From the NCBI GenBank assembly GCA_964016885.1, contig OZ024741.1, forward strand, positions 376,774,001 through 376,838,000: a stretch of 64,000 nt of DNA. Direction: 5' to 3'. A program made the position numbers and the translations under genes. The notes under the pieces are model-generated. The model did not search any database, was not told where the DNA came from, and saw only the letters and a list, made by a program, of their open reading frames with translations. The DNA is from Eledone cirrhosa. Lineage: Eukaryota. Shown in pieces: positions 3,151 to 64,000 of this stretch (position 1 is the first letter of the stretch; each line of letters begins with the position of its first letter).

Positions 3151-3251
3151 TATTTACGACCGTTTCATTGGTAAGTGCAACCTTATATCGCTATACTGCA
3201 AATAGCAGCCACTCAATAATAATTGTTGTTCACATATAAATTTTCAAAATA
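3151..3251 (-). ncRNA. Type I hammerhead ribozyme, U3-A8 core, long domain II
   Basis: TATT-TTGAAAA-[~74 nt]-GAAAC-GGTC-GTA/AATA; stem II is weakened in this copy. Confidence 0.55.
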
Positions 3252-4614
3252 ATAAATAAGTTACTCGGAAAAGGTTCTTAATATATAAAAAAAAACATTT
3301 TTTGGAATTGTATTTAGTAGTATAGAGAGAGAGGAAAGGGGAGAGGAATTAGAAAGTAGAGTGACAAACGGAGATGGAGGGAGGGGTAAAGGTGGAAGGA
3401 TTCCTCGATCAATTTTGATTCGTAGACTTGATGTCGTCAATTTACAGTGTAGGGAGTGAAAGAGAATTAAATTGTTTATAGTGGGAGGGAGGGAGATATA
3501 TATAGAGAGAGGGGGAGAGATAGAGAGATAAATATATATATAAATAAAAATAAAAAAGGAGGGAAGAGAAAAAAGAAAAGAAAAGAAAATATAGCAAAAA
3601 AAGGGAGAGAAGAAAAGAAGAAAACGAAAAAAGAGAAAAAGGAATGAAGGAGGAGAGATGGACATAGGTATTGATTATTGTGGGTAATTAAAGGGGTTAG
3701 ATTCAATAAGAGGGTAGAAAGTCTAAGTATATACAGTTTGTCAGGTGGTAGTAAGAGGTTAAGGGTTCGATTTGTACTTGTAGTGCGAACATTTTTCTTT
3801 GAGTCTATGGTTACAATAAATTGACCTTTCGATTTTATTGTTGAATAACTTATTCTTCGAACACAAAATGTGGAACAGTTCAAGGTCACATAACCGACAG
3901 CTTCTCATACCACTCCCTATGGGGGCGCGTTCGATAACTTTGTCCACTTCAGGGTGTATTGATTGTTACTTTCCCTGAGTTGCCAGGTCTTGTTCGCAAG
4001 GGTAGTTACATAACGATGCTAGGAATGTTTCATTGTGTAACGGGGTTTATACCAACCAGCTTTAAAAGTATTCCCAGTCGTTCCGATATAATACCAGTTT
4101 TGGTTGTCAGATTCTACTGTGCATTCGTTTTTCTCTTTTTTCGTTTTCTTCTTTTCTTCTCTCCCTTTTTTGCTATCTTTTATTTCCTTTTTTATCTCCC
4201 CCTTCTTTATTTATATTTATATATATATATATATTTATCTCTATATCTACCCCCCCCCTCTCTCTCCCTCCCACTATAAACAATTTAATTCCCTTTAACT
4301 CCCTATACTGTAAACTGACGACATCAACTCTACGAATCTAAACTGATTGAGGAATCCTTCCACCTTTACCCCTCCCTCCATCTCCGTTTGTCACTCTACT
4401 TCCTAATTCTTCTCCCCCTTCATATCTCTCTATACTACTCCGTTTGTCACTCTACTTCCTAATTATTCTCCACCCTCCTCTCTCTCTATACTACTCCATT
4501 CGTCACTTTACTTCCAAATTCTTCTCCCCCTTCCTCTCTCTCTCTATTAGTAAATACAATTCCCCAAAAATGTTATTTTATATATTAAGAACCTTTTACG
4601 AGTAATTTATTCAT

Positions 4615-4715
4615 TATTTTGAAAATTTGGAGGTGAACAACAATTATTATTGAGAGGCTGATATTTGCAGTATAGCGATATAAGGTTACACTTATCAATG
4701 AAACGGTCGAAAATA
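4615..4715 (+). ncRNA. Inverted copy of the 3151 hammerhead; cleavage triplet mutated (GTA to GAA)
   Basis: TATT-TTGAAAA-TTTGGAGGTG...CACTTATCAAT-GAAAC-GGTC-GAA-AATA. Confidence 0.5.
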
Positions 4716-5029
4716 CCTGGATAAAATCCTTTTTTAATACTTACCTTTGTTTTCTCTTTTATTCTTTATGCTCCAAGATTGAACGTGATTCGTACAAACT
4801 TGCGGAGTTACCCCTAACCGTACGTTGAAACCGCCCATTAAACTGGCTATCTTAACCACGAACTGTATTACAATAAGCAATTTTCTGCTTCCCTAACTAT
4901 ATGCATATATATAGTAGTGCTTAACAACCCCAGCATGTACTCTCTCCTTACTCGCCAACTCCGACCTCCCTATCTTTACCCTCTATTGTATTCCGATTGT
5001 GCTAGGTAGAGCTTATACGCAGCATTGCG

Positions 5030-60011: not shown

Positions 60012-60603
60012 ATGGTGGCTGCCAACTCGTTTTCGAGTACGGCCACTACTTTATATCCATGTAGGAGAACTCCTACCGATGCGCTGAACGAATGTGACTT
60101 TAGTCCAGCCAGCGACTTGAAAACTCTGGTACAAACACTACACTTGTGACAATTATTGACCCATAGTTCTAGGCCCACGTACCATGTGACGACAAGTGCA
60201 GGGAGATCTCCAGATATAAAGCAATGCCTGTGCCGTGAAGCTTTTATAGTGAGCAAAGGCACTGCACAAAGCCAGTCCCACTCTCTTAACCAAGATGATA
60301 TTTACCAAAAAGAAGAACAAGTCAACATCATTGGATACCATCAGAGTTGCAGGTGTTATATAAGAGTTTTCCTTCTCCTAGAATTCTGCCTTGACAAAGG
60401 CTAAGGGGTCATCTCTCCCGGTGATTTTGGATGGCCATTGACTCTTAAGAGCTCCTTTGCCCTTATAGTCCTGCAGGATGTCCAAAGTCACCCTGCTCTC
60501 CAAGAAACCTTAGTGGGGTTGCCAGTTTAGTCGCCCAAGACCCGACCATGGGACAAGTTGTACTGGAATACATGTTACCAGTAGCACCAAGTGGTGACCT
60601 GAC
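60012..60603 (-). mobile_element. ~590-bp non-autonomous RTE-derived element, copy 3
   Basis: Homologous to 11959-12547; '[20 protein letters not shown]'. Confidence 0.8.
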
Positions 60604-61045
60604 ATATATATATATATGTATGTATATGTATGTATACATACATACATGTATATGTATGTATACAAACATACATGTATACATACATACACACATACATACA
60701 TATATATATATATATATATATACACATATATATATATACATATATATATATATATATATACATACATACATACATACATATATATATAGATATATACATA
60801 CATACATATATATAGAGATATATACATACATACATATATATATATATATACATACATACATACATAGATATATATATATATATACATACATACATATATA
60901 TATATATATACATACATATATATATATATATATACATACATACATATATATATATATACATATATATATATATATACATACATACATATATATACATACA
61001 TACATATATATATATATATATATATATATATATATATATATATAT

Positions 61046-64000
61046 AGTAACAAGTAAGACCCCGACGGCTGAGCTCAAGCCGTTTCGTCGGCTAATTCTG
61101 GACTGAATGAAAATTTATTCTGGTATTTAAATAGCCGAGCTTATCAAGGGGTAATTCCATATATGGTCAAAGAGATAATCACCAAGATTGGTCACATCAC
61201 AGGTTAGTAGTAAATCTGTGATGGCAAATTGGTGGTGGAAGGGGTAGCTAAACCTGCCGGTAGGAGAAAAAGAGGGAGGGGGTGGAGTAGACCCATTCAT
61301 GCGTTGGTAGTGCCGGCTACAACTGGGCGTGAGGTCAAAGAGGATACTGGGGAGGGGGAAGGAAGTCGAAACGGTAAGTAGAACAATGTAGGGTAAAACT
61401 ATAAAAATTACTGAGAGAGAAAAATAAATAAGCAAAGTCTGGTTACTAAGACATAAGTCCCTCGCTATTCCTAGGCTAAAAAAATCCATATATAAATAAA
61501 TAAACAAATAAGTGAATAAAAGAATAGATGAATAAATTAAAAAAAAAAAAAAAAAGAAAATATATATATATATATATATATATATATATATATAATGAAG
61601 AATAAAAAAATAAATAATAATAATAAAAATAAACTAGGTGAGACGGAAATAAAGGGACACTTATACGAGGTATAAGTGCGTATATCGTACGGTGACGGTT
61701 CAACAAAGGGGGGGGGGGGCGGCAAAATACTAAAGAGACTACCACGAAATAATAAAGGTTTCTACCCCAATCACAGGGCCAGCAACCACCCAGTGCAAGA
61801 AAATAAACTAGTACGAGAATATAATTCAGGTTCCCGCAAAAAAATACTAGTACTAACTCTAAGGGTACCGCCACGAGACGAAAAGTCTTATACAAGCTAC
61901 ATGAAAGATCGTACGAAGTAAAAGTAAAGAACGGAACATTAATACAGAAACAGCCCCCCCCCCCCCTCCAGAAAAAAAAGAGGGGAAAAAGAAGAAAGAA
62001 ATACTGGATAAACGAGAAATTAGAAGCAAAGATGCCACTAAGAAATATACAAGACACGGAAAAAAGGGACAGCGGTCGGAGAAGGGGGCAAGTATTCGAA
62101 GTCTAACACCTCTGCTATAAAAAGCGGAGGCAGCCAGATCTATCATAGAATAGGGGAGGGGGTGGGGTGCTGAAGCTACAAGGGACCGAGGGGCTACCTC
62201 GAGTGGGCGAGAAAAAGACGACGACAAAGAAAAGGAACTGGGGTAGAAGGACTAGGGAGGGATGGGGGGGAAGGACGGAATATAGAGGAAGCGATAAAAG
62301 AATGTAAAAGAAGATCTTACGTCTCCATTGGCAAGCAGGGTTGCCCATTACAAAATAGGCAAGTGGGGTGTTATACTCTAGTCTACGCCCCCCGGGTCAT
62401 TATGGGGTTTGAGGGCGAGGTAAGTCCTACGTAATCGGTGTTTACATGCAGTAACCAGTTCATCTTTCTTGTTGAGGAGTTGGTCCGTCGAAAACAGCAT
62501 TTGTAAAGTTTCCTCCGAGCATAAATTGCACGGACGGAGTCCTCCCGTGTAAGAGTTGACTCTGGACAGTAATTTCCAAGTGAGATCATAGTTTTTGTTG
62601 TTGTCCTTGAGGTCCCATATGTGGCTCGAAAATGTAGTGGCGTGACGCCGGGCCGGGTTTCGGAAGGTATGTCTGTGTTGGTATAGCCGGGTCTTGAAGT
62701 CACATGCGGTTAATCCTATATAAGCTTTGTTGGAGGTGTCCGTGCTCACGTTGCACTGGTAGATCACATTACAGTCTCTGCATCTGTTGTCGGGGGGGCA
62801 ACTGGATCTATCAGGACAGTTGTACCTCCTGGTCGGCTCTCCACTGCTATTTAGTTTGTTTCATCCATGGGGGTTGAGTTTTTTGTTGTTGGAGGAGACG
62901 ATGTTTTGTGCGAAGTTCGGCGTAGTGCTGTAAGAGAGTTTGATGGTATTTTTATTAATTATGTTGTGGTAGCGGTGTTGTGTTGGGAAGTGTTTTTCAA
63001 TGAGCCTAAGGAAAATTTTCCCGATGGGAGTTATCACCTCGGCGTTGTGGGGAGGATTGAACTATGTTACATTACGTGAGCGGCGGTGTCGCCTGCTGTT
63101 TCTGCTAATGGGAGCTGGACAGTAGGATATTTCCTCCCGGAAACCACTCCGCTTGAGGGCCTGGTTGTAGTAAGGCGCATGTTCATCGAATATCTTCTCA
63201 TTAGCTGACAAACGGGATATGCGGAGGGAGGTGTTTTTGACCAGGTTGTTGGTGATGTTTCTAGGATGGTTAGATCGGTGGTGGATGTAGTGCAGGTTGT
63301 CATTGGGTTTCCTGTATGGGTAGTACAGGTCATTATTGAGATCGAGGGTAACGTCTAGGAAATTAACTCGGGTCAGGGATGTTTGTAGGGTTATTTTAAA
63401 TCCCCAGTCAGGGAAGAAGCTGATTAATTGTTTACGGACCCGATCTGTACTACTGGGGTTGTACCCTTTAAGGGTAAGGAGCCCATCATCACGGTACAAT
63501 CCACCACCGAAAGCAGGAAACATATCGGTCAGTTTGATTATAAGGAATAATCCTATAAGATCTGTGACCTCTGCCGAATCTGTAGCGCCCATGCTGACGT
63601 CGAAGGGTGAGTCGGGAGCTCTTTTTATCCATTTGGAGTTGTCAAAGAGTAAGACTGTCTTCCTGGCGTGGAGGAGGATTTTTCTTTCCTGGTCGGTGAT
63701 GCGCACAAGTGCTTCGGCGAAGTCCAAGGCGGCAGTATGTAGCTGTAAGGTGATTGAAGCATAGTAGCTCTCTATGTCGAACTGGATAAATTTAGTGTCT
63801 CGTTTATCCTCCATATTGGTGAACCATGAGATAACTTCCTGGGTGTTGATCCATAGGCTAAATCGGGGGTGTTGCTTGAATTTTGGTATCACGCGGTCTA
63901 GGATTTTTTTGCTGATTCTCCCTATGTCGGACTTCGTTGGGTTTATAAGCCTGATAGATGGTTTACGGTCGAAATCAGATTTGTGGTCCTTCATTGTGAA
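61046..64000 (-). mobile_element. Hydra-like PLE running off the window end; RT (63062-63994) and GIY-YIG (62378-62767) separated by frameshifts
   Basis: 'KDHK..IRLINPTKSDIGRISK', 'FIQFDIESYY', 'FDVSMGATDSAE', 'GLYRDDGL', 'VNFLDVTLDL', 'YIGLTACDFKTR'. Confidence 0.95.
61059..61152 (-). ncRNA. Type I hammerhead, U3-A8 core, long domain II, full stem III
   Basis: ACCCC-TTGATAA-G(C)TCGGCTA...TAGCCGAC-GAAA-CGGCT-TGAGCTC-AGCCG-TC/GGGGT. Confidence 0.88.

Follow-up and report, generated by a model that had tools for sequence, protein, structure and literature searches.

The stretch of DNA considered here, 64,000 nucleotides from Eledone cirrhosa (assembly GCA_964016885.1, contig OZ024741.1, positions 376,774,001 to 376,838,000) and called the window below, carries several families of hammerhead motifs with a long second arm. 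On balance, and judging from the sequence, we take these to be type I hammerhead ribozymes at the 3' ends of Penelope-like elements (PLEs), in which helix II is an interrupted rod of 49-107 nucleotides (nt), and which are likely to cleave themselves at GUC, GUA or GUU sites, mostly as dimers. The long structured domain II, by which we mean the nucleotides between the core and GAAA, is the new part; it is common in the E. cirrhosa genome and is missed by current models. The window is AT-rich animal DNA, dense in microsatellites and PLE remnants, within an assembly of 3.0 Gb, and its hammerheads were named as families A (3151/4615), B (5293/5825), C (10495/10635), D (14545), E (15153/15863/16454), F (20430/61059) and G (the 50284 array).

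Each of families A-F has a YUGANRA core, a helix II rising from that core, GAAA, a stem III ending in A15.1-U16.1, an NUH cleavage site and a short stem I, and so shows the type I core with stems I, II and III around it. Positions 3 and 8 form a Watson-Crick pair throughout, with the exception of a C3.A8 subfamily of F. The base of helix II often lies behind a 1x1 mismatch at 10.1/11.1, which is U.U in A and D and C.A in B and C. Domain II measures 74 nt in A, 50 in B, 107 in C (90 in a rearranged copy), 49 in D, 57 in E and 54 in F, in good agreement with a first-pass annotation that had put six families at about 48-108 nt. The same annotation had read a TTGAWAA core, with U3-A8, in five families, and its coordinates hold: UUGANAA is found at 3247(-), 4619(+), 10625(-), 10640(+), 15235(-), 15868(+), 16459(+), 61147(-) and 50287(+), as well as in three repeats of the last.

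A strict descriptor matches two copies in the window, both intact, compared with a mean of 0.02 over 50 shuffles; most of the other copies fail it because of private mutations. The intact copies are a family E hammerhead at 15153..15240 (-), with a U3-A8 core, a GUC site and a predicted cut after 15158, and a family F hammerhead at 61059..61152 (-), also U3-A8 with a GUC site, predicted to cut after 61064. Family A is present at 3150..3252 (-), where a U3-A8 core accompanies a mutated stem II 5' arm (predicted cut after 3155), and as an inverted partner at 4614..4716 (+) that has lost U16.1 and its cleavage triplet. The family B hammerhead at 5825..5905 (-) is C3-G8, with a palindromic stem III, a GUU site and a predicted cut after 5830; its second tandem unit at 5295..5375 (-), the 5293 copy, carries G5A. 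Family C, U3-A8, lies at 10495..10630 (-), with a predicted cut after 10500, and its inverted partner, the copy with the rearranged domain, at 10635..10753 (+). Family D has a C3-G8 core, and its window copy at 14545..14626 (-) carries U4A. Two further family E hammerheads, at 15863..15950 (+) and 16454..16541 (+), are units 1 and 2 of a 591-nt tandem, the first with one stem I mismatch and the second also mismatched in stem I. The other family F hammerhead, at 20430..20525 (-), belongs to the C3.A8 subfamily, has a domain II of 56 nt and lies behind a Hydra-type open reading frame (ORF) at 21654-22678(-). Tandem units are about 530 nt in B and about 590 nt in E, and D has one 683-nt tandem. 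Stems I-III with a cleavage site in the correct place, as first claimed, are therefore seen in A-F as families, and several window copies are damaged (4615, 5293, 14545, 20430, 3151 and 15863/16454).

Stem III is palindromic, of the dimer type, in A-E, and the stem III segments of A-E and G pair with themselves as duplexes, not as hairpins; that of the intact F copy can fold as a monomer hairpin. In A-E, the palindrome would pair between two copies in tandem or inverted transcripts. Within single family E insertions, one particular stem I position is often paired in one tandem copy and mismatched in the other; the window at 15153-16541 and the loci L031, L037 and L044, which are independent, show this. 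An extra C3-G8 hammerhead-like motif, absent from the first-pass list, lies at 39013-39063 (-); its domain II is 22 nt long and has an A.G mismatch at the base.

The elements that carry these motifs share the marks of PLEs. All seven families have two preferred 3' termini a short distance beyond the ribozyme and adjoining (TA)n, a variably cut 5' end and often an inverted partner, and the two (TA)n-adjacent termini match the PLE tail pattern (PMC11167929). Families A, C and F, inserted in (TA)n, stand behind ORFs with a C-terminal GIY-YIG region and with the CxCX5C linker, CxxC and CxH by which PMC8557442 defines the Hydra clade; the motifs were read by eye against that definition, and for family C only the CxxC/CxH end was in view. 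In other copies of family A the ORF ends about 550-610 nt upstream of the hammerhead, and for family C an ORF end of this type is common to the upstream side at L138, L144 and L149. In the window, a Hydra-type reverse transcriptase (RT)/GIY-YIG ORF remnant with CxCX5C linker, CxxC and CxH at 62378..63390 (-) has its 3' end about 1,240 nt upstream of the 61059 hammerhead. The family A and family F proteins are 36% identical. Pfam returned only one weak RT and one weak GIY-YIG match, and a homolog search gave two unnamed proteins. For families B, D and E, no consistent ORF was found in flanks of 1.5 kb, and longer autonomous forms may exist. The families had been described at first as unrelated retroelements; since PLE hallmarks occur in all seven, and 3151, 10495 and 61059 stand behind Hydra-type ORFs, they are better seen as different families of one superfamily.

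Fold and conservation of domain II

The families could be followed well beyond the window. Genome searches returned 40-44 scored matches per family out of 130 to 2,051 candidates, and 30 loci were fetched for each; both exact anchors were kept in 13 to 30 of the 30, with the length of domain II nearly fixed, and family copy numbers run from hundreds to thousands. Long domains are also frequent in a sample taken without regard to family, consisting of 100 evenly spaced 10-kb stretches from the four largest contigs (the even 1 Mb sample). After the exclusion of one 65-nt match spanning two tandem short hammerheads, 16 G3/U8 matches from one tandem repeat and two other non-core matches, the census held 73 matches in 24 clusters, and domain II was at least 40 nt long in 27 of the matches and 12 of the clusters.

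Domain II folds as an interrupted rod with a basal helix, an internal loop and a distal helix, to which the longest domains add further tiers. Fold z-scores, computed on modal or representative sequences, were -2.6 to -6.0 in 11 of the 12 domains of at least 36 nt, and -5.3 in L277, a C3-G8 relative of family C. The rod is supported by ten family B relatives chosen from the fetched loci, in which 93% of cells are paired, compared with 33-49% in slid controls, and double changes are seen in 7 of 22 pairs, 5 of these in the distal helix. The covariation score was reached by none of 500 shuffles, which is support and not proof, as related sequences can beat such shuffles. The pyrimidine-rich internal loop of family B keeps several invariant letters while the helices around it turn over. 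Family E retains its rod through G.U changes in 16 copies, and family C shares the same rod with L277, with four compensatory basal-helix pairs in our reading and a conserved apical motif common to both. We infer from these patterns that the rod has been kept folded by selection. The sequence-conserved internal loop, 4-7 bp from the core, would then likely replace loop 2 in a tertiary contact or a contact with an element protein, and in the longest rods the apical motif may take that role instead.

One or two internal hairpins had first been proposed for domain II, and a single interrupted rod fits better for both families in which the two models were compared. For 15863, pairing is seen in 52% of the cells of the first named hairpin (16 copies). 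For 5825, the two-hairpin model pairs 76% of cells with a double change in 1 of 7 pairs, against 85% and 5 of 9 for the single distal helix. Both two-hairpin models were rejected. A separate family at L203:782, L259:2795 and L297:8140 has a domain II of 95-97 nt whose fold is a three-way junction that includes two hairpins (z -6.0).

Part of the evidence pulls away from a conserved and functional rod. The folds of family D (z -1.4, the weakest) and of L305, a C3-G8 relative of family A (z -1.5), are weak, and the covariation of family E does not rise above shuffles (16 copies; score reached by 491 of 500). With the exception of the pairs C/L277 and A/L305, the long domains of different families have no sequence in common, and therefore no common motif. 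These last data suit another explanation, namely that the hammerheads cleave and the long domain II is a tolerated appendage, derived from PLE foldback hairpin insertions that happened to close helix II and add no function. The lengths of domain II are almost continuous from 12 to 107 nt across the 24 clusters, PLE copies constantly produce foldbacks, and the published Hydra hammerhead loops are of only 3-10 nt (PMC8557442), all of which such an origin would accommodate. Closure of the helix alone, however, would not need the double changes in 5 of 9 pairs of the family B distal helix, nor the conservation of the family B internal loop or of the C/L277 apical motif, and we consider an idle appendage rather unlikely.

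For the longest domains, those of family C, it could also be asked whether they contain a short spliceosomal intron that alters the shape of the ribozyme when it is spliced out. Donor-like and acceptor-like motifs stand 47-49 nt apart in C and at the corresponding positions of L277, C has a branch-like motif as well, and PLE repeats are known to contain introns (PMC2377424). However, none of the genomic copies has the stretch shortened, the motifs lie inside the paired rod, so that the rod explains their conservation, and the other long domains have no such motifs. A search of 82 contigs from one run of unknown kind found no family C splice joint, and three further runs, guessed to be RNA, contributed 0, 0 and 1 contigs; these results say nothing on splicing or expression. 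A spliced domain II thus seems very improbable. In family D (14420-14520; L175, L162), donor-like and acceptor-like motifs about 85 nt apart occur just downstream of the ribozyme, and this pair is likely a PLE intron by its motifs.

Core variants and possible traces of cleavage

The pair between positions 3 and 8 had been joined by the first-pass annotation with the long domain II into a single class. The descriptor matches of the even 1 Mb sample comprised 58 C3-G8, 14 U3-A8, 2 U3-G8 and 0 C3-A8, while three shuffles gave 0 C3-G8 and 0.3 U3-A8. Among the 12 long clusters, 8 are C3-G8 and 4 are U3-A8 (one of them a single doubtful match), and 2 of the 12 short clusters are U3-A8 (Fisher p 0.64); the two traits therefore assort independently across the 24 clusters, and a link between them was rejected. 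U3-A8 replaces C3-G8 by a compensatory change whose origin did not depend on how long the arm is. Both position 3 and position 8 differ within two pairs of homologues, C and L277, with a domain II similarity of z 8.0, and A and L305, for which the similarity is weaker (z 4.4). Nor is U3-A8 a new class, as had been supposed, since it was described before for PLE hammerheads, with about 1,300 copies in Schistosoma Cercyon elements and two UUGANAA rows in Fig. S3 (PMC4209133), and its covariation, as well as the U10.1.U11.1 mismatch, is among the natural variants of other hammerheads (PMC3088659). Pairs of natural sequences with a different 3/8 pair, a different arm length or one broken core are ready controls for the role of hammerheads in PLEs.

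Family G departs from the type I core. Its array of four short hammerhead-like motifs at 50282..52760 (+) has the U3-A8 core for which it had been listed, and it has a domain II of 14 nt, a weak stem I made of A-U pairs throughout, and GCAA in place of GAAA, the last in all 6 window copies and in 29 of the 30 genomic copies selected by query. A short U3-A8 sister at 34257..34296 (-), the 34291 copy, has an intact GAAA. The array stands behind a PLE ORF at 46988-49186(+) with a DKG motif and a CX2-5CxxC linker, which appears Neptune- or Nematis-like by the key of PMC8557442. A frame of 449 aa without a Pfam match lies directly upstream of this RT/GIY-YIG frame and overlaps it (45708-49186, +); such an extra upstream ORF may be unusual in an endonuclease-bearing PLE.

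The hammerheads look maintained, as first suggested: core position 7 takes all four bases while the other core letters hold, and helix II shows compensatory changes in the family B relatives. As to cleavage itself, the 5' ends of elements may hold traces. In the families other than F, a 101-nt span contains 48 ends, of which 5 coincide exactly with the predicted cut; two of these are the arms of one foldback. Genome-wide, of 25 family B copies in which three flank letters are mismatched, 24 begin at the cut, while 2 matches were found at -4 and 13 at +4; the +4 pattern covers fewer subfamilies but is boosted by (TA)n overlap. These ends at the cut are possibly a trace of cleavage, and those of family B are suggestive. 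Family F gave 70 matches at -3 of the cut, a number that has no partner count and is not interpreted.

Several results count against the idea that these ribozymes cleave and need to do so. Family B starts, judged by eye on the first 100 of 276 listed, spread from -11 to +9 and are bunched only at -2 to 0, and the 5' ends of family C (46 matches, by eye) show no clear peak at the cut. Of the first 100 family F cores listed, counted by eye, 25 are C3.A8 and none is C3-G8; with this subfamily and the GCAA-fixed family G, elements with broken cores have spread, which argues that cleavage is not always needed. In vitro, the insertion of a lizard PLE did not need cleavage (PMC11167929). An alternative reading is that the fold is kept as a scaffold for protein binding or priming, or as promoter DNA, and that self-cleavage is weak or dispensable. 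The amplified C3.A8 and GCAA subfamilies and the non-canonical 10.1/11.1 pairs would fit such a role, as would the reports that PLE hammerheads cleave poorly in vitro (PMC4209133) and that cleavage mutants still insert (PMC11167929). Against it stand the core letters that hold while position 7 varies, the 58 C3-G8 and 14 U3-A8 matches of the even sample set beside 2 U3-G8 and 0 C3-A8, and the family B copies that start at the predicted cut. We judge a scaffold with little use for cleavage to be quite improbable, and continue to favour self-cleaving hammerheads.

Two observations on single copies may be added. At 22669 (+) a family F fragment starts exactly at the predicted cut, head-to-head with a truncated ORF. 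At L343:1559 and 2016, family B copies have cleanly lost the stretch between a point immediately upstream of stem I and the predicted cut, which looks as though reverse transcription had jumped onto a cleavage product.

Family F copies that begin inside loop II

Family F differs from the others in where its copies begin. In the even sample, 33 of 38 F copies start no more than 22 nt upstream of G12, the commonest start being 18 nt upstream, and the other five start at least 90 nt upstream. Exact matches across the genome number 27,951 for the 3' part of domain II, as opposed to 6,853 for the core half, and the former drop to 4,616 when six more upstream letters are required. Many F copies are head-to-head mini-foldbacks, which have different centres and are therefore separate events; the one at 18854..18966 in the window consists of two head-to-head hammerhead 3' halves, each with its start inside loop II. 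Starts are most frequent at the A (61104) of an initiator-like motif, and a TATA-like box, which starts at 61133, lies 29 bp upstream of it (the pair spanning 61100..61133, -). Family G starts cluster 57-65 nt upstream of G12, likewise at initiator-like motifs, and there too a TATA-like box is present, 32 bp upstream. The labels TATA-like and initiator-like refer in both families to the general consensus motifs.

We lean towards a transcription start within the family F ribozyme, in loop II, with the loop DNA likely also holding the core promoter. F insertions would in that case be run-off copies of RNA that starts in loop II and is primed internally, and internal priming has been shown for the lizard element (PMC11167929). 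Somewhat less probable, yet well within reason for family F, the ends could come from the RT stopping at the inner hairpin or from a cut in the RNA. The F ends spread over about 10 nt, some of them 3-5 nt past the initiator-like A, and the 3' strand of the inner hairpin lies at the same place, as a stop or a cut might lead one to expect. What speaks for a transcription start instead is that the mode falls on the initiator-like A, past the stronger outer helix, and that family G has the same pair of motifs at its own start cluster, away from the ribozyme. To be weighed against a loop-II promoter are the variation of the TATA-like box among F subfamilies and the confinement of the loop-II cluster to F, the starts of A-E clustering further upstream. 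The idea that loop-II promoters account for long domains in general was rejected, as no such promoter is seen in A-E.

A core promoter in the F loop would mean that transcripts start inside their own 5' ribozyme and contain a whole hammerhead only at the 3' repeat. If so, it would explain how an element can keep self-cleaving RNA in both repeats without loss of its own cap. A broader and more speculative proposal, to which we give a rather low probability, is that domain II is a working module, an RNA platform for protein binding or tertiary contacts that serves in F also as core promoter DNA, so that the 5' repeat yields a capped half-hammerhead unable to cut itself. The 3' repeat might cut such a half-hammerhead in trans, or reverse transcription might turn it into some tens of thousands of mini foldbacks.

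Several neighbouring features deserve mention. Antisense open frames lie over or near the B and D hammerheads, at 5810-6100 (+), of about 90 codons, and at 14630-14850 (+), of about 70 codons, and are present in several B and D copies; considered as genes, they gave no match to the PLE query peptides and were taken as chance. Between 53751 and 58188 are two 1.3-kb copies of an RT fragment like that of long interspersed elements, 99.7% identical and separated by long microsatellites, which are either a recent duplication or an assembly repeat. Outside the window, at L261:281-3381 and L266:8630-9683, a 310-nt tandem repeat has a short C3-G8 hammerhead in each unit and resembles a classical retrozyme array.

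Detection and known systems

That standard searches would miss these ribozymes, as the first-pass annotation had expected, is borne out. Rfam gave no hammerhead hit at or above the gathering threshold in the window and 10 loci, no hammerhead match at E up to 10 on two small stretches, and none among the best 150 of 310 rows of a further scan. The published descriptor for minimal PLE hammerhead ribozymes (min-HHRs; Cervera 2014), which as given in PMC4209133 allows a helix II of 3-7 bp, a loop of 3-10 nt and a minimal stem III, had no match in the window with either core, and another published PLE descriptor limits the core spacer to 17 nt. For about a third of the hammerheads in the even sample, the arm falls outside what Rfam and the published descriptors allow. 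Counts of animal hammerheads may therefore be too low, and claims that some PLE families lack them may be affected in the same way. A search of the full-text literature found no description of long domain II as a class, although Lunse et al. 2017 may overlap.

The closest relatives are the PLE hammerheads of Cervera and De la Pena 2014 (PMC4209133), which are likewise type I, with a short stem I and a palindromic stem III, occur in PLE repeats as tandem and inverted copies, and include the U3-A8 core. Those hammerheads have a helix II of 3-8 bp and a loop of 3-10 nt, unlike the window families with their 49-107 nt. The Hydra-clade PLE hammerheads of Craig et al. 2021 (PMC8557442) agree with A, C and F in ORF motifs, and share the (TA)n targets, the position near the 3' end and the frequent U.U at 10.1/11.1; the Hydra motifs listed in its File S2 are, by contrast, C3-G8 with loops of 3-10 nt. 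Within that file, loops of 35 and 29 nt are found only in two spike-moss PLE-X entries, flagged as non-canonical, which therefore provide a plant precedent for a long domain II, in a supplement.

Families B and E resemble the non-LTR retrozymes, retrozymes without long terminal repeats (PMC7229834; bioRxiv 10.64898/2026.07.22.740005), in that each of their tandem units contains a type I hammerhead and no ORF was found linked to them; they differ from the retrozymes in keeping PLE tails, inverted 5' copies, (TA)n targets and the long arm. The U3-A8 pair and the U10.1.U11.1 mismatch are shared with the natural core variants of Perreault et al. 2011, whereas a long domain II and A13C (GCAA) are not among the variants described in the accessible part of that paper (PMC3088659). 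An RNA polymerase II promoter within a hammerhead-bearing repeat, as proposed here for family F, has parallels in the internal promoter of Penelope (Schostak et al. 2008, PMC2377424) and in the NbRZ1 retrozyme (PMC12029980); the available portions of those two accounts hold no precedent for a transcription start inside loop II. NbRZ1 begins its transcript upstream of the cut, and that transcript undergoes cleavage (PMC12029980), whereas the start of family F would lie inside loop II of the ribozyme.

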